32,000 bases of DNA from Candidatus Methylomirabilis limnetica (GCF_003044035.1 NZ_NVQC01000022.1:270001-302000), one strand, 5' to 3'; positions 6,413-31,480 are shown, numbered from the stretch's first letter. Notes: a model not told the origin generated them from the letters alone. Program-made: numbers and translations.

Positions 6413-6507
6413 CGGCGTGAGGGGGACTTTCGATGCAATGACAAACGAGGACGAAGGGTGTACGCGGTTATCGCTGGGAGCGAAGAAAGAGGGAAAGCAG
6501 ATGATTC

Positions 6508-6600
6508 TCAGGGGAACTGGCGGAGGAAGCGCAGGTCGTTGGCGTGGAAGAGGCGGAGATCAGCCGGATATGCCATCAATTCGCGCATGGCTGAGCCGAT
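6508..6600 (-). pseudogene. Copy B of the repeated gene-end module (..AMRELMAYPADLRLFHANDLRFLRQFP stop)
   Basis: My own translation. It is out of frame with the PIN remnant just upstream. It is 54/56 nt identical to copy A. Confidence 0.4.
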
Positions 6601-8815: not shown

Positions 8816-8975
8816 TCAGGATGGGTAGCAGGTGAACCGACAGAGGAAGCGGAGGTCGTCAGCGTGGAAGAGGCGGAGATCTTTGATGCCGTACTTGAGC
8901 ATGGCAACACGAGCTGAGTTCGTGGTAATCGAATCGAAAATACCCCGCGGCCAGCACGGGGCATACCGACCACGG
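8816..8975 (-). pseudogene. Copy C of the repeated gene-end module (..FDSITTNSARVAMLKYGIKDLRLFHADDLRFL..)
   Basis: This is the C-terminal part of track ORF 8816..9058. 8843-8881 and 8891-8914 align with copy A at the nucleotide level. The upstream part of the ORF is not protein-like and overlaps the ParE-like remnant. Confidence 0.4.
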
Positions 8976-9215: not shown

Positions 9216-9305
9216 CTAGACACCCTCCGGAAGAAGGGTAAAGCAAGCCCACAATCGGGCTATTGCGAGAGACCTCAGAGGTCTTTAAGGATCCCCGCGA
9301 AAAAT

Positions 9306-9321
9306 AGGGACAGACACTATT
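9306..9321. repeat. Family B core, inverted copy (AGGGACAGACACTATT), forming the left boundary of the RAYT remnant
   Basis: Reverse complement of AATAGTGTCTGTCCCT at 9577-9592 and 1039-1054. Confidence 0.65.
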
Positions 9322-9359
9322 ATCGTGACGATTCGTGATGCTCGCGGTCATGATCGTGC

Positions 9360-9581
9360 ATGCCACGGATTATCCGAACCGTTGCAGCCGGCCACCCGTA
9401 TCATGTGAGGCAACGCGGGAATGATCACCAGGCGGTCTTTCGAAACGACAGCGAATCGGAGGCACACGATGACAGGGCAGCGACTGCAAAGAGACGGGTT
9501 CATCTGGGAGGTGCGCAGGACACTGGACGAGTCATACACGTGGTGCAGAAGGGAAGACCACGAACGGAACCCAATAAATAG
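9360..9581 (+). pseudogene. Truncated REP-associated tyrosine transposase (RAYT, IS200/IS605 Y1-like) N-terminal remnant
   Basis: MPRIIRTVAAGHPYHVRQRGNDHQAVFRNDSE matches the RAYT N-terminus (MPR..R...G..YHV..RGN..Q.vF.dd.D). The degenerate RVHLGGAQDTGRVIHVVQ sits where the ..LM.NHVHL.. motif is expected. It stops after 73 aa. Confidence 0.55.
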
Positions 9582-9592
9582 TGTCTGTCCCT
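9549..9592. repeat. Family B repeat, forming the right boundary of the RAYT remnant
   Basis: Related to 1011-1054. It is inverted relative to 9306-9321. Confidence 0.65.
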
Positions 9593-9640
9593 CTATCCCA
9601 TGGCCTTAGTTTGAACCTTGAACGATCCCAGTCAGCGTCC

Positions 9641-9688
9641 AGTCCATCTGAGATCGTCGGGTTATGCGGCGCTAACCCGGCCTACGCT
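9641..9688. repeat. REP-like hairpin family A, copy 2
   Basis: AGTCCATCTGAGATCGTCGGGTTAtgcggcgcTAACCCGGCCTACGC is near-identical to 931-979. Confidence 0.7.
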
Positions 9689-15961: not shown

Positions 15962-16125
15962 GTAACTACTCAAGGTGTTTAGGCTGAAGGCTGAAGGCTG
16001 AAGGTTCTAAATTATCTCGCAAGGCACGAGTCGAGCCATTCAAGATCTTTTCGGAGTTTTCTTTGATCACGCATGACTTACCCCTAAAAGCCTTCAGCCT
16101 TCAGCCTATCCACCTGAGTAGTTTC
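15962..16125 (-). mobile_element. IVS-like MITE, copy 1 (164 bp), with the ORF remnant on the minus strand
   Basis: Its termini are GTAACTACTCAAGGTG ... CACCTGAGTAGTTTC. Its arms are (GGCTGAA)3 and (TTCAGCC)2. It is flanked by the perfect 8-bp direct repeat TAATGCAG (15954-61 and 16126-33). The loop encodes MRDQRKLRKDLEWLDSCLAR stop. Confidence 0.75.
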
Positions 16126-16127
16126 TA

Positions 16128-16450
16128 ATGCAGGAAGAACTCCCCATGACTCACGACACATCACCGGCAGCTATCGCGATGGCTGAGCAGATTGCGGAAC
16201 TCCAGGAGCGGGTTCTGGATGATGCGCTAGGGCCTCGAGGGCACCCACGATCGTCTGAAGCGCCATGGGCCTGCCGCTGCGGAGCCCGAACGGGCTTCGC
16301 CCGGAGGGGGGGGCGCCATCAACTTCTTCGTACCGACTCCGGAGCGGTTTCGATCACGCTGTACGTAGTACGCTGCTCTAGTTGTCGCGCTGTTTTCTCG
16401 CCATTTCGCCAGCTTATCGAGTTGGCATCGCACGGCGATCGACCGGAGGA
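16128..16450 (+). pseudogene. Possible remnant of a transposase N-terminal zinc-ribbon region (ISKra4-like layout), read as an in-frame extension of the lptF ORF
   Basis: ..ELQERVLDDAL...CRCGARTGFARRGGRHQLLRTDSGAVSITLYVVRCSSCRAVFSP.. shows the C-x-C-G ... R..L.T..G ... C..C ...P architecture. This is a weak assignment made by eye. Confidence 0.3.
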
Positions 16451-17898: not shown

Positions 17899-18972
17899 AT
17901 GCGAATTCTGGATCGTTACCTTGTGAGAGAGTTTCTGGGGACGTTCGTCTTCTCGCTGGTAGTCCTCCTCGCGCTCTCCGCTATCGTTGACCTGTTCGAC
18001 CGCCTGTCCCGCTTCCTCGACGTTTCCGGTATGGTGGTTCTCCAGTACTACGTCCATAGGCTGCCATGGTTCGGATTCCAGGTCATGCCGGTGGCGGTGC
18101 TTCTCGCCGCCCTATTCAGCCTTGGGAGAATGGTTCGGCACAACGAATTACTCGCCATGAAGATGGGTCATCTAGGTTCCTTGCGCATCATAGCTCCGCT
18201 TTTGGTCCTCGGCCTCGTGGTGAGCCTTGCGGCACTGGTCCTAGGTGAGTCGATAATCCCTCAAATGAACGAACGCGCGCTGAACACGTATCGAGTCAAG
18301 GTGCAGAAGGTCTCCCCCTTTCAGCGGACCAGGGACAACGATATCTGGTACCGGGCCAAGGGTAACCGGTTTTTGCACATCTCGCTACTGGAGGTGGCAT
18401 CGGGTAACATCCATGGGCTGACCATCTTTGAACTCTCACCGGATTTCAGGCTACTGAGAAGGGTCGATGCAAAGGAGGCCCGATGGCAAGACGGGCGGTG
18501 GTGGCTTCGGGATGGCGAAATCTCCTGGACCAGGCCTGATGGGAGATATCAAGTCGATCCGTTTACGAACATTACGATTGATCTCGAAGAAACGCCCATG
18601 GATCTTGCCCAGGTCGTGCGGGAGCCTGAAGAGATGAGCTCTGCGGAGCTTCGGGAGTATATCGAGCGGCTCGCCAAAAGTGGGGTGAACTCTGTGCGGT
18701 ATCAGGTAGACCTGGCTGCAAAGAGCTCTACAGCATTCGTGAGTGTCGTGATGGCCCTCATCGGGATCGCATTCGCCCTCCGTACCGGCAAGCGAGGCGT
18801 GATGGCCTGGTCGGGCGCCTGCGTGGTGGTAGCCGTATGTTACTCGATCCTCAACTCCCTCAGTATTTCTCTCGGGCGAGGCGGCGTCCTGCCCCCGATA
18901 GTTGCGGCGTGGCTTCCCAACGCCCTCTTCACCGCTGCCGGTCTCAGCTCCGTACTCACGATCAAGAGCTAA
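17899..18972 (+). CDS. lptG: LPS export ABC transporter permease LptG, 357 aa
   Basis: MRILDRYLVREFLGTFVFSLVVLL.. is the canonical start (ATG at 17899; the track start at 17881 is an upstream TTG). It belongs to the YjgP/YjgQ family and is adjacent to lptF. Confidence 0.85.
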   Translation: MRILDRYLVREFLGTFVFSLVVLLALSAIVDLFDRLSRFLDVSGMVVLQYYVHRLPWFGFQVMPVAVLLAALFSLGRMVRHNELLAMKMGHLGSLRIIAPLLVLGLVVSLAALVLGESIIPQMNERALNTYRVKVQKVSPFQRTRDNDIWYRAKGNRFLHISLLEVASGNIHGLTIFELSPDFRLLRRVDAKEARWQDGRWWLRDGEISWTRPDGRYQVDPFTNITIDLEETPMDLAQVVREPEEMSSAELREYIERLAKSGVNSVRYQVDLAAKSSTAFVSVVMALIGIAFALRTGKRGVMAWSGACVVVAVCYSILNSLSISLGRGGVLPPIVAAWLPNALFTAAGLSSVLTIKS

Positions 18973-18973
18973 T

Positions 18974-19024
18974 AGCGATCAGCTCTCAGCTGCTGAAAGC
19001 TGATCGCTAACAGCTGAACGCTGC
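18974..19024 (+). repeat. Heptamer-periodic array (GCTGAnn type) containing an 11-bp perfect inverted repeat (AGCGATCAGCT / AGCTGATCGCT)
   Basis: 7-nt phasing of AGCT/CGCT across about 7 units, directly after the lptG stop. No T-run follows, so it is not a classical intrinsic terminator. Confidence 0.6.
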
Positions 19025-19185: not shown

Positions 19186-20634
19186 ATGAACATGCCGACG
19201 TTAGCAGAAAAAAATCTATCCTCTTCGCCTGATTTCAAGGTGGCGGATTTGTCCTTGGCCGATTTTGGTCGCAAAGAAATTGACATTGCTGAAAAAGAAA
19301 TGCCCGGCCTGATGGCGGTGCGTGAGAAGTACGGGAAATTGAAATCTCTCAAAGGCGTCCGTGTAACCGGTTCGCTGCATATGACCATTCAAACAGCCGT
19401 GTTGATCGAAACCCTGGTCGACCTGGGTGCGGATGTTCGCTGGGCCTCTTGCAATATCTTTTCAACCCAAGACCATGCAGCGGCAGCCATTGCCGTGGCT
19501 GGAGTTCCCGTATTCGCCTGGAAAGGTGAAACCTTGGAAGAATATTGGGACTGTACTTTTAAAGCTCTGGTTCACCCTGGCAAAAACGGTGAGGTCCTGG
19601 GACCCCAGCTCATTGTAGATGATGGTGGCGATGCCACCTTACTCATTCATTGGGGAGTCAAGGCCGAAAAAGACGCGTCTTTCCTGGATCGAAAACCGGA
19701 GAACGAAGAGGAAGGCTGTATTCTCAACTTGTTGAAAAACACTTTGAAGTCCTATCCGGGTATTTGGACCCGCATAAGCAAAGACTGGAAAGGGGTTTCG
19801 GAGGAAACCACCACCGGCGTCCATCGTTTATACCAGATGATGGAAAAAGGGGAACTTTTGGTGCCGGCCATTAATGTGAACGACAGTGTCACCAAGAGCA
19901 AGTTCGATAATTTGTACGGATGCCGAGAATCATTGGCCGATGGCATCAAACGCGCCACCGATGTGATGATCGCAGGTAAAGTGGTGGTCGTGGCCGGCTA
20001 CGGAGATGTGGGCAAGGGTTGCGCGCATAGTATGCGCAGTTACGGGGCCCGCGTTATCGTCACTGAGATTGATCCCATCAACGCCCTACAAGCGGCGATG
20101 GAGGGCTTTGAAGTCACCGTTATGGAAGACGCCGCCAAGATGGGGAATATTTTTGTAACCGCTACCGGTAACGTGGATGTCATTACCGCGGCTCACATGG
20201 TGACGATGAAAGGGGAAAGTATCATTTGCAACATCGGGCATTTCGACAGCGAAATCGATGTGGCCGGGTTGAAATCCCTTCCGGGTGTGCAACACGTCAA
20301 CATCAAGCCCCAGGTGGATAAATATGTCCTTCCAAATGGGAATAACCTCTATCTTTTAGCAGAAGGACGTCTTGTCAATCTGGGTTGTGCCACGGGTCAT
20401 CCCAGTTTCGTCATGTCGAATTCATTTACTAACCAAACCTTGGCCCAAATCGACCTTTGGAGCAACCCGCGGCCCATAGGTGTTTACACCTTACCTAAAA
20501 AGCTGGATGAGGAAGTCGCTCGACTGCATTTGGAAAAACTGGGAATCAAACTAACCCGGTTGAGTCCCAAGCAGGCTAAATATATCGGAATCTCTCCGGA
20601 TGGTCCCTATAAGCCAGATCATTATCGTTATTAA
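19186..20634 (+). CDS. ahcY: Adenosylhomocysteinase (S-adenosyl-L-homocysteine hydrolase)
   Basis: ..[35 protein letters not shown].., the NAD site [12 protein letters not shown], and the C-terminus [12 protein letters not shown]. The track start at 19063 is too early. Real start is ATG 19186 (MNMPT) or ATG 19192 behind AGGAA. Confidence 0.9.
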
Positions 20635-20706
20635 GCGGCAATTGGATTGCCGCTAGGCTTCTAGCCCTTTGAATCCTATCTCTTTTCGGGGATAGGATTT
20701 TTTGTT
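20635..20706 (+). terminator. Tandem hairpins after ahcY; the second is a rho-independent terminator (AATCCTATC-loop-GATAGGATT followed by TTTTTGTT)
   Basis: GCGGCAATtggATTGCCGC at 20635-20653. A 9-bp stem at 20672-20699 is followed by a T-run. Confidence 0.7.
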
Positions 20707-21199
20707 GGTTTTAGATCAAGCCCTCGTGAGGGATTACAGATCGAAGCTATTCAAAAGTGAGCCGTCTGGCTCCCCTCGACCCGTCGCCGGCGTCCAAACT
20801 CTGTCCATGCTCGGTCCATACATGGTTCAGCAGTGCTTCTTTTGAGGATGCGTTCCGATCAAATCCACCACCCATTCCGATCGATGATCGCCGGTTGCCT
20901 CGCGAGCAGGATGCCGGTCCAAGACGCCTCGATTTAGGGTAGTGAACCAAGCGTGGGGGGAGACAGGGCACTGTGACCAATGCAGGAGACTCAAGATTAC
21001 GGGGGTGTAATCTACACCCTACACGGTGGCAGGCGCGGGGGATTCCCGCAAGCGCCGTTCACCTACGCTCTGGCGCCTAACGGCGTGATCTGCCGCGAGT
21101 GTAACGAGCTAGCGCGCCAAGTTGTTGGGCTGTAATTCTTGGTCTCATCCTATTCGTTCCCAGAGACCGCTGACGTCTGCACCGTTGCAATACAAATGG

Positions 21200-22429
21200 T
21201 TAGTTGATGAGAAACAGTTTAATGGTGTATTCATAAATAATTGCCGCAACGATAGAGGCACAGATGCCGAATATGAATTGCATCATGATCGATTTCTCTT
21301 TCTCTTGTTTCTCCATCTGCCTATTCCCTTTCGCTGTCAACGCGAGAATGCTTTGCATTCGAAACACTCTTAGGTACAGTGCGGTCAACATATAGGCAAC
21401 CAGATAGAGAAGTACGAACCTAAAGTATGAGTACGCCCAATGTATATTCTGCATTGCCTGTATCTGTTGAATCATCGCCTTCGTATTGTAGGTGAGCTTT
21501 TCTGATTTTTCGTCTCGGTCATAGTAGCCAGACACCCACTTGTCAATGACTCCATGGTACTTTGAATTAAAGCGTCCTGCTTCCTGGAGCCCCGAGATAA
21601 TGGCTCTCGGCTCATACTTCAAATCGCGAAGCAGAAAGAACTGAAGAAGGAGACTTGGATCTCGGTCACTCCTGTTGTCTATCAATACTTCTGCAACATC
21701 AAAAATAAACTCATCTCGCACTTTTAGCGGATTGAGCATGTCCTTTTTTTGGATAAGCATGTAAATGCCTCCAACAATAATAAATAGGATGCAGGCAACG
21801 GCAATAGTATCCAAGATGCCAAAACTCTTCAAAGATCGTAGGGTCTTGTACGCGAGTGAGTAGCGAATTACTATTTTGCCTATGTGCTCTTCAAACAGTC
21901 GCAATACTTCTGCGGCCCAGACCTGGTTTGTATGTTCAACTCTCACCGTAATAGAACCCACGCGCGAAAACAATCTAGCCGTTTCAAAAAAGACCGATAC
22001 TTTTTGTTGTTGAACAGTGTTCATGTCTGGCGTCTTAAACACAAAATTCCAGCACATGTCGAACGATTGCACCCCTATGTCCCTGTGCTCGCTATATTTT
22101 TCAATCGCTTCAAATGTATTGATTGTTCTGTTGGTGTTGTCATCATAACGTATGACAGCTGTTACTAACGACGTCATTATGAACTGTTCTTTAGCTATTT
22201 TTTGTTCCAGCAGATGGTGAAACTGCAGCAAGTCCTCGATTCGTACAATGAAATCATTATCGAATGTCTTACTCAAGGTTTCTCTGGCACCAAGAAACCC
22301 AAAAAGAAACTCCGCGAACTTCCCTTTTTTCAATATCAGCGTTACATCGCTATCCCCGTCTTGCCGTAATGTTGCTATCTCCGGATCGGTAGCCTCCCCT
22401 TTAGGCGTTATGCCGCTTTGTTGCGCCAT
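21200..22429 (-). CDS. Orphan low-GC membrane protein, 409 aa (about 200-aa soluble N-domain, one central TM, two C-terminal TMs)
   Basis: A clean ORF with a strong SD (GGAGGAActcATG). About 40-43% GC in sampled stretches against more than 60% in neighbouring genes. TM segments: ILDTIAVACILFIIVGGIYMLI, FRFVLLYLVAYMLTALYL and IMMQFIFGICASIVAAIIY. No family was recognised. Confidence 0.75.
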   Translation of the reverse strand: MAQQSGITPKGEATDPEIATLRQDGDSDVTLILKKGKFAEFLFGFLGARETLSKTFDNDFIVRIEDLLQFHHLLEQKIAKEQFIMTSLVTAVIRYDDNTNRTINTFEAIEKYSEHRDIGVQSFDMCWNFVFKTPDMNTVQQQKVSVFFETARLFSRVGSITVRVEHTNQVWAAEVLRLFEEHIGKIVIRYSLAYKTLRSLKSFGILDTIAVACILFIIVGGIYMLIQKKDMLNPLKVRDEFIFDVAEVLIDNRSDRDPSLLLQFFLLRDLKYEPRAIISGLQEAGRFNSKYHGVIDKWVSGYYDRDEKSEKLTYNTKAMIQQIQAMQNIHWAYSYFRFVLLYLVAYMLTALYLRVFRMQSILALTAKGNRQMEKQEKEKSIMMQFIFGICASIVAAIIYEYTIKLFLIN

Positions 22430-22448
22430 GAGTTCCTCCTAGTTAGAA

Positions 22449-22673
22449 CTACCTAATCCGGCGCAAGACTTGACCAGATTGCAATATAATCTGGCTCGCA
22501 TCCCGCCGGAAGAGCCCCCGTAACCTGTTCGCCACGCGGTCCAGAGAATTGGCGGACGTCTTCTGAAAACAGTATGGCCCTTCAGGAGTCATGATGCCCC
22601 AGAGGGCCATAGCGGTCTTCGCCTTCGGCGTGATGCCGGTTCCGGCTAGGCGCAGGTTCCCACCACTTGCCAT
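22449..22673 (-). CDS. Small hypothetical protein, 74 aa, 17 nt upstream of the orphan membrane-protein gene
   Basis: The ATG at 22673 is preceded by GAGGAG with 6-nt spacing. The track start (TTG at 22712) would lie at the predicted transcription start. The GC content is host-like. No family was recognised. Confidence 0.5.
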   Translation of the reverse strand: MASGGNLRLAGTGITPKAKTAMALWGIMTPEGPYCFQKTSANSLDRVANRLRGLFRRDASQIILQSGQVLRRIR

Positions 22674-22719
22674 GTCTGTCTCCTCACCCTTGACAAAAGA
22701 GGGTAGAACCAAGTAGCCA

Positions 22720-22749
22720 ACTGTAGCATGTAGCTTACTTGGGTGTCAA
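22720..22749 (-). promoter_or_regulatory. Candidate promoter of the two-gene module (TTGACA-18 nt-TACAGT on the minus strand)
   Basis: Hexamers read directly from the sequence (plus-strand ACTGTA 22720-25 and TGTCAA 22744-49). Confidence 0.4.
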
Positions 22750-23164
22750 AGGAAGCATGAGCCGTCTTGGGGGCCAACCCGCGGAGTTGGCAGTGCAGGT
22801 TACAACCACAAACCTACACCACGATCGGAACGCCTGGCCGAGCTCAATCGGAAGAGGTGGCCGGTTTACGACCGGAATGGGTGGCGCAGTGGGCGTACGC
22901 ATCTTGTCGAGGCAGAGGTTGACGAGCCGTACGAACTACATGGCCAGAACAGGAGATGCTTGCACGTATGGTAGCGCGTGCGGGCGCGGATGTCTGGCTC
23001 GGAAGGCGGGGTGAAGCGACTAGATTGACGCGGCTCACAGGCTCGAACGGAGGAAAGCCTTGGAACAGTGCAGGCACGCATCCTCGACCTCGACGCCGAG
23101 CGCGACCTTGGGGAGTTTGCCATGCACGGCCTGGCGGGCGGAGTCAGCGCAGCTCTCAGGTGCG

Positions 23165-23839
23165 TTACTTCACGATCTCCAGCAGTTCCACCTCGAAGAC
23201 CAGCGTGGCGCCCGGCTTGATTTTCGGGGGCGACCCCCGGACGCCGTAGGCCGCGTCGGCAGGGCAGACCAGCTTGGCCTTACCGCCGACCTTCATGGTG
23301 GCAACGCCTTCGGTCCAGCACTTGATCACGCCGTTGAGCGGGAAGGTGGCCGGTTGCCCACGCTGCACGGAGCTGTCGAAGACGGTGCCGTCGATCAGGG
23401 TGCCAGTGTAGTGCACCTTCACCGTGTCGCTGGCCGCGGGCGAGGGTCCGGTGCCAGGCTTGAGCGTGGTGACGATCACGCCCGAGGCCGTCTTGGTCAC
23501 CCCCTTCTCGGCGGCGGCCTTGTCGAGGAACGACTGGCCCTGCTTCTTCTCGACGGCAGCGGTGGCGGCCTGACGCGACGCCTGCAACTCCTGGACCTTG
23601 CTAGTGTACGCGAGCAGCTCGACCTTCCGCGTCCGATTCAGGACCCCGTCGGCGAGACCTGACTTCACCAACTCCAGCTCGGCCTCGCTGAGATTGAACG
23701 AGCCGAGACTCTGGCTGAGCGCGAGCCCTAGGGCGTAAAATGTCTTCTGCTCCTCAGTCTTCAGCTCCTGGCCCCTGACGACGCCGGCCGCGCCGACGGT
23801 CATCAGGAGGGCGACGATGCACGCGACGATTCGATGCAT
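23165..23839 (-). CDS. Periplasmic FKBP-type peptidyl-prolyl cis-trans isomerase (FkpA/FklB-like), 224 aa
   Basis: Signal peptide MHRIVACIVALLMTVGAAG. FKBP domain VKVHYTGTLIDGTVFDSS....FPLNGVIKCWTEG...MKVGGKAKLVCPADAAYG....IKPGATLVFEVELLEI. Confidence 0.85.
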   Translation of the reverse strand: MHRIVACIVALLMTVGAAGVVRGQELKTEEQKTFYALGLALSQSLGSFNLSEAELELVKSGLADGVLNRTRKVELLAYTSKVQELQASRQAATAAVEKKQGQSFLDKAAAEKGVTKTASGVIVTTLKPGTGPSPAASDTVKVHYTGTLIDGTVFDSSVQRGQPATFPLNGVIKCWTEGVATMKVGGKAKLVCPADAAYGVRGSPPKIKPGATLVFEVELLEIVK

Positions 23840-25004: not shown

Positions 25005-25028
25005 AAATCGACCCTCCTCCCCTTCCAA

Positions 25029-25056
25029 GTTTTGAGTTTTGAGTTTCGGGTTTTGA
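25029..25056. repeat. Heptamer array (GTTTTGA)x4, one unit degenerate, in the metK 5-prime leader
   Basis: GTTTTGA GTTTTGA GTTTCGG GTTTTGA read directly from the sequence. Confidence 0.7.
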
Positions 25057-25696: not shown

Positions 25697-25715
25697 GGGC
25701 ATTCCTTAGAAAATA

Positions 25716-25750
25716 GCGTTCAGCTTTCAGCGGTCAGCTATCGGCTCTTC
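25716..25750. repeat. Heptamer array (GCnnTCA type, 5 units) immediately upstream of kdsC
   Basis: GCGTTCA GCTTTCA GCGGTCA GCTATCG GCTCTTC. On the coding strand it reads as GCTGAnn units. Confidence 0.65.
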
Positions 25751-25847: not shown

Positions 25848-25881
25848 AACGCTCGGCTGAGCGCCGATTGCCGATCGCTTC

Positions 25882-26049
25882 GTAACTACTCAGGTGTTTA
25901 GGCTGTAGGCTGAAGGCTGTTAGTCGTTGCGCACGGACTGAATCAAGGCGCACTTCATCGGCCAGTTCAAACGCTCTGAGCTTGGCATGATCTCGCATGG
26001 CGCGTTCCTACAGTCTAAAAGCCTACAGTCTATCTACCTGAGTAGTTAC
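25882..26049 (-). mobile_element. IVS-like MITE, copy 2 (168 bp), with the ORF remnant on the minus strand
   Basis: Perfect 14-nt termini GTAACTACTCAGGT / ACCTGAGTAGTTAC. Arms are GGCTGTAGGCTGAAGGCTG and CTACAGTCTAAAAGCCTACAGTC. It is flanked by the perfect 8-bp repeat ATCGCTTC (25874-81 and 26050-57). The loop encodes MRDHAKLRAFELADEV.., the canonical N-terminus of a four-helix-bundle protein. Confidence 0.8.
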
Positions 26050-26056
26050 ATCGCTT

Positions 26057-27016
26057 CTATACCACCCCGGCCCTCAGGAGGTCGTGCAGGTGGATGACCC
26101 CCTCTGGTCTCCCTTCGGGATCTACGATCAGCAGGGAGGTGATCGCGTGCCGCTCCATGACCTCCAGCGCCCTGGCCGCGAGGGCATCCTTGTCGATGGT
26201 CTTGGGGTGAGACGTCATGCAGTCTCTGACCTGCCGCTGCAACAGATCGATACCTTCCTGGAGCATCCGTCTTAGGTCGCCATCGGTGATGATTCCGGTG
26301 AGGATCCCGGCCTCGTCCACCACAGCGGTCATTCCGAACTGCTTTCGCGAAATCTCGGTAAGCGCGTCACGCATGAGCGTACCCTGCGCGATGACAGGAA
26401 GCTGCTCACCAACGTGCATGAGGTCCTGCACCCGCCATAACAGCCGCCGTCCCAAGCTACCGGCCGGATGCAAGAGCACAAAGTCTGCCTCGGTGAAACC
26501 GCGCTGCTCGAGCAGAACTACGGCAAGAGCATCGCCCATCGCCAGGGCTGCGGTGGTGCTAGCGGTTGGAGCCAAGGCCAGCGGGCAGGCTTCTTTCGCC
26601 ACGCTCACATCGATCGCAACGTCGCACTGTCCGGCAAGGGTGGAGGTGGAATCGCCAACCAGCGCGATCAGCATGAGGCCTAGCCGTTTGATCGCGGGGA
26701 GCAAACCTACGATTTCATCCGTCTCGCCGCTGTTCGAGATCGCGATGACAACATCGCCACGGACCAGCATCCCCAAGTCGCCATGCCCCCCCTCAGCGGG
26801 ATGGAGGAAGAACGCGGGGGTTCCGGTGCTGGCCATGGTGGAGGCAATCTTCTGAGCAATCGATCCGGACTTACCCATGCCGGTTAGTACGACCCGGCCC
26901 CGGCAGTCCCGGAGGATCTCGACAGCCCGGTCGAACCGCTCATCTAGCTTCGGGATCAAGGCCAGGATCGCCTCGGCCTCAATCTGCAGCACTTGTCGCC
27001 CTCGATCGGCAATCAT
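26057..27016 (-). CDS. kdsD: Arabinose-5-phosphate isomerase KdsD (KpsF/GutQ; SIS plus tandem CBS domains), 319 aa
   Basis: GRVVLTGMGKSG.IA.KIA.T..STGTPAFF.HP.E..HGDLG, with C-terminal CBS pairs. Confidence 0.9.
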   Translation of the reverse strand: MIADRGRQVLQIEAEAILALIPKLDERFDRAVEILRDCRGRVVLTGMGKSGSIAQKIASTMASTGTPAFFLHPAEGGHGDLGMLVRGDVVIAISNSGETDEIVGLLPAIKRLGLMLIALVGDSTSTLAGQCDVAIDVSVAKEACPLALAPTASTTAALAMGDALAVVLLEQRGFTEADFVLLHPAGSLGRRLLWRVQDLMHVGEQLPVIAQGTLMRDALTEISRKQFGMTAVVDEAGILTGIITDGDLRRMLQEGIDLLQRQVRDCMTSHPKTIDKDALAARALEVMERHAITSLLIVDPEGRPEGVIHLHDLLRAGVV

Positions 27017-28453: not shown

Positions 28454-28509
28454 ATAAGATCCGCCATCGTTACCTCAGGCCCGAGCAAGCTGAGTGTTGT
28501 ACAATCGAC

Positions 28510-28717
28510 GTAACTACTCAGGTAGATAGGCTGAAGGCTGAAGGCTTTTAGGGGTAAGTCATGCGTGATCATACAAAACTCCGAGAAGATCTTGAATCTA
28601 CTGGGGGTTCATTCCCCGCGGATTGCCGCGGGGTAGTTCATTGGCTCGATTCGTGCCTTGCGAGATAATTTAGAACCTTCAGTCTTCAGTCTTCAGCCTA
28701 AACACCTGAGTAGTTAC
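28510..28717 (+). mobile_element. IVS-like MITE, copy 3 (208 bp), with the ORF remnant on the plus strand and a nested 44-nt REP insertion
   Basis: Perfect termini GTAACTACTCAGGT / ACCTGAGTAGTTAC. Arms are (GGCTGAA)2 and (TTCAGTC)2TTCAGCC. It is flanked by the perfect 8-bp repeat CAATCGAC (28502-09 and 28718-25). The loop is collinear with copy 1 apart from the insertion. Confidence 0.8.
28607..28640. repeat. REP family D hairpin (CCCCGCGGattgCCGCGGGG) nested inside MITE copy 3
   Basis: Absent from the otherwise collinear copy 1. The reverse complement matches 2723-2755 at about 30 of 33 nt. GTTCATT appears on both sides of the insert. Confidence 0.65.
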
Positions 28718-30517
28718 CAATCGACAATAGACCCCACCCTGCGCCATCAGCTCCGCGTGCGTCCCTTGCTCGACACAGCACCCACCGTCCAGTACCAGAA
28801 TCTTGTCGGCTCGAATCACGGTAGAAAGCCGGTGCGCAATCACAAAGGTGGTCCGATTCTGCATCAGCCGATCCAGCGCCTCCTGGACCAGGCGCTCCGA
28901 CTCCGCATCAAGGGCCGACGTGGCTTCATCCAAGATCAGGATGGGCGGGTTCTTCAGGATGGCCCTCGCGATGGCGATCCGTTGTTTCTCTCCACCTGAT
29001 AGACGCACCCCCCGTTCGCCAATCCTGGTCTCGTACTGCGCCGGGAGCGCCTGAATGAACTCCTCAGCGTTGGCGATCCTGGCTGCCTCCACGACTAGAC
29101 CTGGATCCACGTCACGCTGCCCATAGGCGATATTATTAAAAATCGTGTCATCGAATAAGATCGTCTCCTGGGTTACGATCCCCATCTGCGCGCGCAACGA
29201 CGAAAGGGTCGCCAGTGTGATATCGACCCCATCGATGGCGATGAGCCCCTCTGTCGGATCGTAGAAGCGCGGGATGAGGTTGACCATGGTGCTCTTACCG
29301 GTCCCGCTGCTGCCGACGACCGCCACGATCTCACCAAGCTTGGCCCCGAAACTGATGCCGTGCAGTACAGTCCGGTCGGGGTCATAGGCGAAGGAGACGT
29401 TATGGAATCGAACCCCTTCCTGCATCCGTGGAAGCGTCACAGCATCGGATCGCTCCACCAGATCAGAACGGAGGTCCATGAGCTCGAAGACCCGTACGGC
29501 GCCTGCCATTCCGCGCTGAATGTTGTTATTGATCTGGCTGATTCGCTTGACGGGTTGATAGAGGGAGGTCAGTGCCCCAAGGAAAGCCATGAACGCTCCA
29601 GGGGTCAAGCTTTTGGAGAGCACGAGATAGCCGCCGACCCAGATCGCAACAACAATGCCCACGGATCCGAGGACCTCAAGAACCGGCGAGGTAAGCGCGT
29701 CAACCTTGACGATGCGTATGACGGCCTTGAAGACTCGCTCGCTGGCGTGCCGATACCGTCGCCGCTCATACTCTTCCATGCCAAAGGCCTTGACGATCCG
29801 AACCCCGGAAATAGTTTCCTGCAGGATCGTATTCAGCTCGGCGCGCCCCTCTTGGACCAGTGTGCCTCTGCGACGGATCTTGGAACCAAACTTTACAATC
29901 GGCAGGATCGCCACCGGTAAGACGAGCAACGAAAGGAGAGCGAGCTGCCACTTGATCAGAAACAGCAGCACGATGAGCCCGATAATGTTGAACGGCTCCC
30001 TGAGAGCGTTACGGAAGAGCTCGGTCGACGCGTCCCCAAGGCTTTCTACGTCAGAGTTGAGGCGGGACATAATCTCGCCTGTTGAGCGACGAGTGAAAAA
30101 GCCAAGGGACAGCACGTGCAGATGCGCATACAGACTGTTTCGAATGTCTCGCTGGATCCCTTCGGCCACGTATCGCAGTTGCAGTTGCTGGATGTAGAGA
30201 AGTACGCCTTTGGCCAAAAAGACGAGGAAGAGGGCCCCTCCGATAAAGGTGAGGATATTGATTCGATGAGCCTGCAGGAGCGTCTGAAGCTGGACCAGCC
30301 GCTGTCCAAGCACGGCCCTGATCGGATCCGGAAGGCTAATCCCTGCCACACCGCCCTCTGCGGCGAAAAGACCGTCGAAGATCGGCTGGAGTGAACCGAT
30401 GGAGACCGCATTGAGTATGGCGATGAGGACAAGGGAGGCGATAGCAAGGATGACCCGTGCCCGGTAGGGGTAGGCGTACCGGAGCACGCGAAGGAATTGT
30501 TGTAGGGGTGTTTGCAT
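28679..30517 (-). CDS. msbA: Lipid A export ABC transporter permease/ATPase, MsbA-like, 612 aa
   Basis: Six-TM domain followed by an NBD: Walker A GSSGTGKST, signature LSGGEKQR, Walker B ILILDEATSALD. The last 12 codons and the stop lie inside MITE copy 3. Confidence 0.88.
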   Translation of the reverse strand: MQTPLQQFLRVLRYAYPYRARVILAIASLVLIAILNAVSIGSLQPIFDGLFAAEGGVAGISLPDPIRAVLGQRLVQLQTLLQAHRINILTFIGGALFLVFLAKGVLLYIQQLQLRYVAEGIQRDIRNSLYAHLHVLSLGFFTRRSTGEIMSRLNSDVESLGDASTELFRNALREPFNIIGLIVLLFLIKWQLALLSLLVLPVAILPIVKFGSKIRRRGTLVQEGRAELNTILQETISGVRIVKAFGMEEYERRRYRHASERVFKAVIRIVKVDALTSPVLEVLGSVGIVVAIWVGGYLVLSKSLTPGAFMAFLGALTSLYQPVKRISQINNNIQRGMAGAVRVFELMDLRSDLVERSDAVTLPRMQEGVRFHNVSFAYDPDRTVLHGISFGAKLGEIVAVVGSSGTGKSTMVNLIPRFYDPTEGLIAIDGVDITLATLSSLRAQMGIVTQETILFDDTIFNNIAYGQRDVDPGLVVEAARIANAEEFIQALPAQYETRIGERGVRLSGGEKQRIAIARAILKNPPILILDEATSALDAESERLVQEALDRLMQNRTTFVIAHRLSTVIRADKILVLDGGCCVEQGTHAELMAQGGVYCRLVTTQVFRLKTED

Positions 30518-30525
30518 CTGGAGAA

Positions 30526-30567
30526 CAGCCTTCAGCTATCAGCGGTCAGCTTTTAGCTTCTGAACTG
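30526..30567. repeat. Heptamer array (CAGCnnT type, about 6 units) spanning the kdsA stop and the kdsA-msbA gap
   Basis: CAGCCTT CAGCTAT CAGCGGT CAGCTTT TAGCTTC TGAACTG. It encodes the KdsA tail ..VQKLKADR stop. Confidence 0.65.
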
Positions 30568-31409: not shown

Positions 31410-31468
31410 GGGTTTAGGGTTTAGGGTTTAGGGTTTAGGGTTTAGGGTTTAGGGTTTAGGGTTTAGGG
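31410..31468. repeat. Perfect tandem array (GGGTTTA)x8 plus GGG, the plant-type telomere repeat unit, directly abutting the kdsA start codon
   Basis: Counted unit by unit (31410-31465 plus GGG). On the coding (minus) strand it reads (CCCTAAA)n. Confidence 0.9.
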
Positions 31469-31480
31469 AGATCCTTCTAG

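Follow-up and report, generated by a model that had tools for sequence, protein, structure and literature searches.

How did a gene for an orphan membrane protein, low in G+C content (GC), come to lie among housekeeping genes of Candidatus Methylomirabilis limnetica, and what might its product do there? We analysed 32,000 nucleotides (nt) around this gene (GCF_003044035.1, NZ_NVQC01000022.1:270001-302000), hereafter the window, to which all positions refer unless another locus is named. A preliminary description of the locus had read the gene, here called orf409, as a bare single-gene insertion of foreign composition, accompanied by a small upstream open reading frame (ORF) and a promoter of its own, and had proposed a horizontally acquired defence module. 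We find that orf409 is the sole cargo of a module delimited by two conserved elements, A and B, and that the same frame carries other cargo in related genomes. The gene is intact and very probably horizontally acquired and exchangeable, and a function in defence or conflict is proposed more tentatively.

orf409 is the sole cargo of a module that carries other genes elsewhere

The gene, the two ends of the module and the boundary towards the host genes on the left are arranged as follows.

21200-22429, minus strand: orf409, the cargo gene, 409 amino acids (aa) from an ATG start; unnamed family with an N-terminal domain (N-domain) and three transmembrane (TM) helices
22435-22440, minus strand: Shine-Dalgarno (SD) sequence AGGAGG, 5 nt before the orf409 ATG, as read from the sequence
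22449-22527, minus strand: diverged stretch at the position that an integrase remnant holds in sister copies; similarity to this remnant is weak and residual in the window
22449-22673, minus strand: ORF of 74 aa, 100% identical to the annotated CLG94_08765, inside the A-body
22528-22719, minus strand: A-body, a conserved leader, predicted to be transcribed
22720-22749, minus strand: sigma-70-type promoter TTGACA-18-TACAGT with extended -10 TG, scoring 10/12 and directed outward, toward the cargo
22528-22893, minus strand: element A, the carrier end upstream of the cargo, with blastn matches in the loci L103, L109, L110 and L112
22793-22819, no strand assigned: site A, the palindrome GTGTAGGTT-N9-AACCTGCAC, a candidate tyrosine-recombinase core site
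22822-22884, minus strand: three direct repeats TTCCGATYG, with cores at 22877-22869, 22853-22845 and 22830-22822, spaced 24 and 23 nt
20991-21081, minus strand: element B, the distal module end, 91 nt, found with blastn and nhmmer
20994-21017, no strand assigned: site B, the palindrome GTGTAGATTAC-ACCCCC-GTAATCT, at the outer edge of B
20851-20883, plus strand: two TTCCGATCR motifs (TTCCGATCG) at 20853-20861 and 20875-20883, facing the opposite way from the three repeats in element A
20671-20700, plus strand: intrinsic terminator of ahcY, a 13-bp stem followed by a T run, the left host boundary

The gene reported at 21200-22429 indeed exists, on the minus strand and with an ATG start, and the strong SD described with it is the AGGAGG at 22440-22435. 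It is the sole long ORF in the approximately 2.46 kilobases (kb) between the ahcY terminator and the stop codon of an FKBP gene at 23165. With a GC of 0.43 and a GC at third codon positions (GC3) of 0.50, orf409 lies below the window mean GC of 0.572, and the low-GC tract comprises orf409 only, since the segments on either side have 0.55 and 0.63 and the spacer with the small ORF has 0.55. The claim that the flanking genes exceed 60% was overstated, as the neighbours range from 0.50 to 0.66 (FKBP 0.66, metK 0.57, ahcY 0.50). Their GC3 spans 0.56-0.88, and GC3 separates orf409 from them more cleanly than GC does. The foreign composition first described for the gene is thus supported, the homologues too being nearly always AT-richer than their hosts.

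Low GC might alternatively follow from amino-acid composition alone, in a membrane protein that is vertically inherited and serves a housekeeping role. Congruent with this, the abundance of Ile, Phe, Lys and Tyr in the protein makes the GC at second codon positions (GC2) very low, at 0.31. However, GC3 is low as well (0.50 versus 0.56-0.88 in the host genes), the homologues are few, patchy and found in unrelated contexts in hosts of 37-61% GC, and the slot of orf409 holds other cargo elsewhere, so that the chance of a housekeeping origin is close to negligible. The protein itself is intact, since it retains all 46 columns that are invariant across a 17-sequence alignment (A2). DNA similarity to its closest homologues, at L099 and L100, runs from the stop codon to 22445, that is, it covers the ORF and the SD and ends 16 nt upstream of the ATG.

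The module came to light by comparison with related loci. Element A is 82% identical to L103:9839-10204 over 366 nt, 76% identical to L109:905-1263 over 361 nt, and 76% identical to L110:104-421 and L112:1854-2171 over 320 nt (all blastn). Element B is 77% identical to L103:19607-19697, L109:2457-2543, L110:1615-1702 and L112:3365-3452; it always lies downstream of A in the same orientation, in one copy per module (nhmmer E 1e-23 to 3e-29). In the window the module measures about 1.9 kb, and the approximately 1.45 kb between A and B hold orf409 alone. In L103 and L105 the same slot spans 9.4 kb, and its seven genes encode, among other products, a DUF5677 protein and a type IIG restriction-methyltransferase (PADLOC E 7e-88); in L109-L112 it spans 1.2 kb and encodes a protein of 192 aa (called as 215 aa in L109) with no assigned function. 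Slot proteins of 451 and 550 aa are likewise without assigned function, and sequence searches of the PDB with slot cargo gave no match. All cargo genes in the sister modules are co-oriented with the promoter in A, and the DNA outside A and B differs in every locus. Neither element was found in IMG/VR. Thus, the bare single-gene insertion was not borne out, and the degenerate noncoding stretches said to border the gene proved to be so only in part: they contain no convincing gene, their ORFs giving only chance-level matches and none above the Pfam cut-offs, but portions of them (22750-22893 and 20991-21081) belong to the conserved elements.

Both ends carry palindromes. Site A is the sole site of its kind in the window, with 0.11 expected by chance, and it is kept in all copies. 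Site A is also where L110 and L112 begin to resemble the other copies. In L109 a 100% identical second copy of the 30-nt site A (946-975) follows B immediately, at 2557-2586, so that the module lies between direct repeats. Site B is complete in L110 and L112, where it reads GTGTAGATTAC-ACCCCC-GTAATCTGCAC with the 11+6+11-nt geometry of dif/lox sites; the likeness between the arms of site B and site A is only weak (nhmmer E 0.06 in L110 and 8.6 in the window). The three TTCCGATYG repeats next to site A, partly conserved in L103 and L109, are candidate arm-type protein-binding sites. In this genome the module may extend as far as the two related motifs within 20853-20883; no equivalent of them was seen beyond B in the other loci. 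A global inverted repeat linking the two flanks was also considered, and was rejected since the flanks do not align and have only short motifs in common.

The promoter assigned to orf409 in the preliminary description, TTGACA-18-TACAGT, is present at 22749-22720, yet it is not the gene's own and belongs to element A. Promoter-like sites are not enriched by count, with three found and 2.5 expected. Both hexamers are invariant in five diverged copies of A, and the spacer between them varies. It is the only consensus-like promoter upstream of orf409, and no terminator-like site was found between the two. The A-body that follows is 80-93% identical to its sister copies, and about 75% over its last 60 nt or so. 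As an RNA it has no significant predicted fold (z = -1.05), and a comparison of three sequences yielded no covariation that could be used. Rfam returned no match for the whole window at gathering thresholds, nor for 20600-23200 at E <= 10, so no known RNA accounts for the A-body. Promoter and leader recur in L103 as a second, diverged copy, detected by nhmmer at L103:3600-3782, which lies just before a gene for a 921-aa AAA-ATPase and also retains the -35 hexamer. No site A was detected beside this copy, so promoter and leader are themselves a portable piece.

This arrangement bears directly on the small ORF. The earlier reading was that of a two-gene module with its own promoter, in which the 74-aa ORF would encode a regulator or antitoxin and orf409 the effector. 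The ORF is present, downstream of the promoter, with its stop codon 19 nt before the orf409 ATG, not 17 nt as first given; it is preceded by an SD-like GGTGAGGA, and in the diverged L103 copy its frame is kept, with indels in multiples of three, and overlaps the start of the next gene. On the other hand, ORF and promoter are parts of element A and precede unrelated cargo elsewhere, and none of the approximately 12 independent loci of the orf409 family has a related upstream ORF. The ORF has a host-like GC of 0.59, unlike orf409, and no match in Pfam, PADLOC, PHROGs or NCBIfam. Among its apparent homologues the first 45 codons or so are conserved, after which the frames diverge, and the substitutions by codon position, 3/7/8 between the window and L103 and 0/4/0 between L103 and L109, are not coding-like. 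Whether translated or not, CLG94_08765 is, to judge from these comparisons, a frame that spans a conserved stretch of DNA and no partner specific to orf409, and a genuine two-gene module appears very improbable. Its annotation is to be corrected accordingly.

The kind of carrier

Having placed orf409 in the slot between A and B, we considered what kind of element the frame might be. Predicted tyrosine recombinases or their remnants adjoin it. In sister copies, P0183 and P0186 read from the A-body into YDIRxVQELRGHxDVSTTMIYTHV...GVRSP, for which the best NCBIfam match is TIGR02249 (integron integrase), positions 272-315 of 315, with E 7.8e-16, compared with 5e-8 for XerC/XerD. The remnant is thus the 44-codon C-terminal end of an integron integrase, placed directly after the A-body. 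In L103, a complete FimB/FimE-like invertase of 179 aa, comprising the catalytic domain only, is encoded just upstream of A (L103:9099-9638, minus strand; NF007370, E 5e-57). A tblastn search with this recombinase found no decayed integrase in the right flank in the window.

Switches of the fimS type are invertible promoters with FimB/FimE recombinases, and the position of the L103 invertase next to the promoter-bearing element A recalls them. However, the invertase is present in only one of the four contexts and absent from the window. A fim-type invertible promoter was ruled out because no inverted-repeat pair surrounds just the promoter. Since the two palindromes have the cargo between them as well, an inversion would leave expression unswitched. 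As a separate observation, with a FimB/FimE-type recombinase beside A in L103, some copies might undergo inversion or phase variation.

A decayed chromosomal integron deserves closer consideration. Element A would then be the attI/Pc platform by a truncated intI that points the same way as the cassettes, orf409 a cassette and B its attC, an explanation that concerns the carrier and is independent of what orf409 does. The attI1 site consists of direct repeats followed by a simple palindromic site, a layout that the A end recalls. In sister copies the integrase remnant stands directly after the A-body. As in an integron, the promoter of the platform points outward to co-oriented, promoterless cargo, its hexamers being invariant in the five copies. 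B starts with GTTAGGC, which fits the GTTRRRY core, and has GCCCAAC 49 nt upstream. Congruent with integron platforms is further the exchangeable cargo, which includes a restriction system; integron cassettes have been described as stores of defence genes (bioRxiv 10.1101/2024.07.02.601686).

The details, however, depart from this layout. There is no intact intI, and nothing recognisable as IntI in the window; the complete recombinase that does lie next to A is FimB/FimE-like. B lacks an attC-type hairpin, the R''/R' boxes GCCCAAC and GTTAGGC not being predicted to pair, and other copies of B read GTGAGGC, which does not fit GTTRRRY. No B-like site occurs inside the seven-gene L103 cargo, so the repeated attC sites expected between cargo genes are missing and the cargo can be a multigene block of 9.4 kb, and about 265 nt of promoter and leader plus the intI remnant separate site A from the cargo. 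We therefore regard a decayed integron as quite improbable.

The frame has the attributes of a generic cargo module of site-specific recombination: its ends are conserved and hold palindromes of the recombinase type, its cargo varies, its flanks differ, and direct repeats are found at junctions. It is best described as a recombinase-associated cargo module with conserved ends. It can be compared with integrative elements that carry cargo between conserved ends and have degraded or absent integrases, such as tycheposons and their satellites (bioRxiv 10.1101/2020.12.28.424599), and with Xer-dependent dif modules (see also PMC10132070). Points of likeness are short conserved ends around variable cargo, the implication of tyrosine recombinases, palindromes of the 11+6+11 type, direct repeats at one copy and the occupation of different genomic sites. 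Points of difference are that the module is without a tRNA target and that its ends, at 366 nt and 91 nt, far exceed the length of a dif site and hold a promoter and a leader. Group IIC-attC introns are mobile sequences next to integron cassettes that carry outward-facing promoters and, similar to element A, provide a promoter for a downstream promoterless gene (PMC3001079), but Rfam gave no group II intron signature even at E <= 10, and the idea of such an intron was set aside.

The orf409 protein, its family and its possible function

The architecture first described for orf409, a soluble N-domain followed by a central and two C-terminal TM helices, was borne out by an AlphaFold2 (AF2) model and by hydropathy. 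An N-domain of about 190 aa is followed by TM1 (approximately 206-228), a helical spacer of about 100 aa, TM2 (approximately 331-354) and TM3 (approximately 381-402); in the model, which has a mean predicted local distance difference test (pLDDT) of 77, the N-domain is alpha+beta and the rest helical. The net charge is +2.9 before TM1, -0.8 after TM1 and +4.5 in the loop between TM2 and TM3, a distribution which by the positive-inside rule places the N-domain and the TM2-TM3 loop in the cytoplasm, and the spacer and the C-terminus outside. The statement that no known family motif can be recognised likewise stands, since nothing in Pfam, NCBIfam, PHROGs, PADLOC or the sequences of the PDB matches orf409.

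Full-length homologues number 16, with 41-68% identity, all of them hypothetical proteins from metagenomes or metagenome-assembled genomes. A profile search of 1.84 billion representatives extended the family to 730 clusters at E <= 1e-3 and 470 at E <= 1e-10, counted at 50% identity, and a second homology search with a broad alignment, in which the 8000 candidates sharing most words were scored, added almost nothing. Every source name among the members is "hypothetical protein". The layout recurs in most of 84 diverse members scanned, with an N-domain of approximately 190-210 aa, TM1, spacer, TM2, loop and C-terminal TM3; the TM1-TM2 spacer can be as short as a few tens of aa or exceed 200 aa, and the TM2-TM3 loop measures roughly 30-50 aa. 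Nearly invariant throughout the superfamily are G47, F60, E114, W127, Q142, T167 and W171, which include the motif IEHTNQxWxxEV. The conserved polar cluster of E114, Q142, H166-T167-N168-Q169 and W171 suggests a candidate binding site.

Regarding genomic context, the family gene is a solitary unit without a conserved neighbour. When the 3-kb flanks of 13 family loci and the window were compared with the gene masked, no gene was common to any pair except two loci on the same contig, which leaves about 12 independent contexts. At six of seven homologue loci the gene lies 7-17 GC points below its surroundings, and the hosts span 37-61% GC. The family was not found in 50,697 phage records, in IMG/VR or among true plasmids; its profile is that of an accessory gene of chromosomal islands.

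The neighbourhoods of homologues, proposed earlier as a check of the defence reading, agree with it in a qualitative way: in about eight of ten informative contexts the homologue lies beside toxin-antitoxin (TA), restriction-modification (RM), TIR, integrase or primase genes, in a small sample. One homologue has an integrase 257 nt away, together with AAA_14/DUF4143 (PADLOC PDC-S01), HEPN/MNT, PIN/RHH and an insertion sequence (IS). A second lies beside PemK/MazE and Uma2, a third beside an integrase and an N6_Mtase protein (Pfam), a fourth beside small genes of the Xre/HicA type and a fifth beside two TIR proteins and a caspase-like protein. A sixth is flanked by UPF0175/DUF3368 pairs on both sides, and a seventh is accompanied by Mrr_cat, an excisionase-like helix-turn-helix (HTH) protein and an archaeo-eukaryotic primase (AEP). 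The neighbours at one further locus are uninformative. Altogether 80 neighbouring proteins match 127 PADLOC models, among them a type IIG RM enzyme, TIR/ThsB and several PDC candidates. These contexts are suggestive of conflict biology.

Single-protein membrane effectors are known from several defence systems, such as abortive-infection (Abi) proteins, the TM effectors of the cyclic oligonucleotide-based anti-phage signalling system (CBASS), Pycsar and Thoeris, and CorA-like effectors of type III CRISPR. We propose that cargo would be exchanged by site-specific recombination at the palindromic sites and that orf409 would be transcribed from the promoter in A. The cytoplasmic N-domain might then sense a cue derived from a phage or another mobile genetic element (MGE). 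Together with the conserved basic loop it would gate a membrane-perturbing TM assembly, probably an oligomer, and the compromised membrane would provide protection of the abortive-infection type, with orf409 as a stand-alone conflict effector. Like the single-protein effectors named above, orf409 joins a cytoplasmic, putatively sensing domain to few TM helices, and its family is solitary, AT-rich, patchy and found in variable islands beside TA, RM and TIR genes. It differs in that it has no sequence homology or confident structural homology to any of them and no associated signal-generating enzyme, and in that it combines three TM helices with an extracytoplasmic helical domain of about 100 aa. 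We hold a defence or conflict function of orf409 at slightly less than even confidence. The abortive-infection role first suggested for the locus retains the contexts and the foreign composition in its favour and is plausible by association only; with no known defence family matched, it is the least certain part of the explanation.

A number of observations weigh against this proposal, at the level of both the carrier and the protein. The spacers differ between site A and site B, making a simple recombination of A with B unlikely, no intact recombinase lies next to the module in the window, and the mobility of the module is something we infer from its dispersed copies and the flanking direct repeat in L109. 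Neither orf409 nor the small ORF matches PADLOC-DB v2.0.0 at E <= 1, and ten distant family members yielded no Pfam match and no match to PADLOC v2 at E <= 0.1. The association with defence genes is qualitative, drawn from a small sample without a background rate, and the PADLOC candidate models are permissive. In Foldseek searches (the full-length model against PDB and BFVD, the N-domain model against PDB only) the full chain aligned to CorA over approximately 385-400 columns with E 8e-4 to 5e-3, at TM-scores of 0.11-0.15 and root-mean-square deviations (rmsd) above 40 A, and the N-domain gave weak matches to CYTH, START/Bet v 1 and TRPML-ELD folds (E >= 2.8e-3, TMq 0.17-0.36). Finally, a relative of 361 aa in Acinetobacter baumannii (L090, CP040041.1, 393004-394089), present on at least 1000 contigs, has as annotated neighbours a gene with an adenylation domain of the non-ribosomal peptide synthetase type and a TetR regulator, with no defence genes nearby, and looks more like a resident gene at an ordinary-looking chromosomal site.

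The structure search that had been suggested as a further check was thus run for orf409 and returned weak matches only, to CorA and to CYTH/START-like folds, so that no fold assignment is justified. Two BFVD matches fell below E 1e-3 (best 7.2e-5), and these are not credible because their TM-scores are approximately 0.11 and their rmsd exceeds 36 A. The conserved E50-x3-K54 of orf409 does not fit the EXEXK of CYTH, and Pfam has no match for the N-domain. Compared with the CorA Mg2+ channel (PDB 5jtg, 4i0u and 3jcf), orf409 shows an alpha/beta N-domain, long helices and C-terminal TM helices in the same order, but it lacks the GMN motif and detectable sequence similarity, and it has three TM helices instead of two, the extra one lying between the N-domain and the helical region. 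Membership of the CorA family was rejected given the missing GMN motif, the three TM helices, the TM-score of 0.11-0.15 and the lack of a CorA match in Pfam.

The same data can be read without defence. The exchangeable cargo might have no anti-phage role and instead encode an accessory protein of the membrane, be it a sensor, a channel, a transporter or an envelope-stress protein, whose gene travels by chance in variable islands. Such a function agrees with the lack of any defence family matching orf409, with the weak likeness to an ion channel and of the N-domain to the small-molecule-binding CYTH and START/Bet v 1 folds, with the widespread A. baumannii relative and its metabolic and regulatory annotated neighbours, and with the 451-, 550- and 192-aa proteins without assigned function in the same slot. 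It agrees less well with a family that has no conserved partner or operon, is persistently AT-rich and recurs beside TA, RM, TIR and integrase genes, and the fold scores near noise and the absent GMN motif give little to the CorA comparison. We consider an accessory role of this sort rather unlikely.

Alternatively, orf409 could benefit the carrier element and not the host, as a selfish stabilisation or exclusion factor, that is, a membrane toxin or a protein for competition between MGEs. It is, after all, the cargo of a small recombination module and a membrane protein with three TM helices, and it has relatives among TA pairs and in an element that also carries genes for a primase and an excisionase-like protein. 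Against this, no cognate antitoxin or conserved neighbour is found, orf409 is intact and apparently tolerated as a single unit under a consensus-like promoter, and the family is not found in the phage or true-plasmid collections, which together render a selfish factor highly doubtful.

In kind, an orphan membrane protein as island cargo and single-gene defence candidate is familiar, and thousands of such candidates exist. New are the large unannotated orf409 family without a recognisable fold, and in Methylomirabilota the A/B frame with its fixed promoter and swappable cargo. Should orf409 prove protective, a sizeable unannotated superfamily of approximately 730 clusters, including a very common A. 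baumannii gene, would join the single-gene defence systems. The frame exemplifies the swapping of cargo at a defined site in an uncultured NC10 methanotroph, where a promoter of the carrier is predicted to express each cargo, and elements A and B provide a searchable handle for further candidate conflict genes in Methylomirabilota metagenomes. Taken to its furthest, the A...B frame would be an undescribed integron-like platform for gene capture and expression that works without attC hairpins and shuffles defence cargo from genome to genome in Methylomirabilota-like bacteria, and orf409 would found a family of single-protein, membrane-acting abortive-infection systems with a new sensor fold and about 730 clusters across bacteria; we deem this combination unlikely. 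Among the members of the family, the one from A. baumannii would lend itself most readily to experiments. This gene is extremely AT-rich (GC 0.24 and GC3 0.15, with a locus average of 0.39) yet widespread in a clinical pathogen.

Host genes and dispersed repeats

The surroundings of the module are housekeeping genes. To the left, on the plus strand, lie the genes for LptF, LptG and AhcY. To the right, on the minus strand, follow those for an FkpA-like FKBP, MetK, a KdsC-like hydrolase, a KdsD-like SIS/CBS protein and an O-antigen ligase. Here ahcY and metK are on opposite strands with the FKBP gene between them. In the genome collection this FKBP has its best homologues, 62-79% identical, in Rokubacteria and Nitrospira, and in no case is metK or ahcY close by. 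The FKBP gene (23165-23839) has an unusually high GC3 for the window, 0.88, and ahcY (19192-20634) an unusually low GC of 0.50, with a GC3 of 0.56. Noncoding DNA separates the module from the host genes, about 270 nt at 22894-23164 and about 150 nt at 20701-20850; neither stretch matched any of the loci compared, and the one on the FKBP side has a GC of 0.63. The window contains no tRNA or transfer-messenger RNA genes.

Further repeats are scattered over the window. The stretches 9299-9599, 987-1056 and 1821-1875 are 86-90% identical to parts of loci that carry A and B, namely to L109:4399-4698, which overlaps the end of an IS3-type HTH_Tnp_1 gene, L110:3018-3229 and L103:8857-8911, from which it follows that the window has several dispersed mobile sequences in common with those organisms. 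Three copies of a 92-nt repeat (1957-2048, 6500-6591 and 8820-8911) are 72-80% identical, and repeats of 44 and 68 nt are each present in two copies; the stretches compared include 935-1054 versus 9525-9687. Such repeats suggest that the first 10 kb contain paralogous small genes or elements.

Palindromic intergenic elements of approximately 170 nt lie at 15962-16129, 25875-26065 and 28494-28724. They consist of heptamer runs (GGCTGAA / AGCCTTC) around the core CACCTGAGTAGTTAC and look like repeats of the miniature inverted-repeat transposable element (MITE) or repetitive extragenic palindromic (REP) type, with 86-nt arms that are 95% complementary between 16038-16123 and 28512-28597. Tandem heptamers are also present in many intergenic spacers (31410-31470, 18967-19022, 25027-25054, 25709-25746 and 30521-30558). 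The types include GGGTTTA, repeated about nine times, runs of the AGCTGAA/CAGCTTT type, and GAGTTTT, which forms runs within the 5' portion of the longest metK ORF. They resemble the short tandemly repeated heptamers of cyanobacteria.

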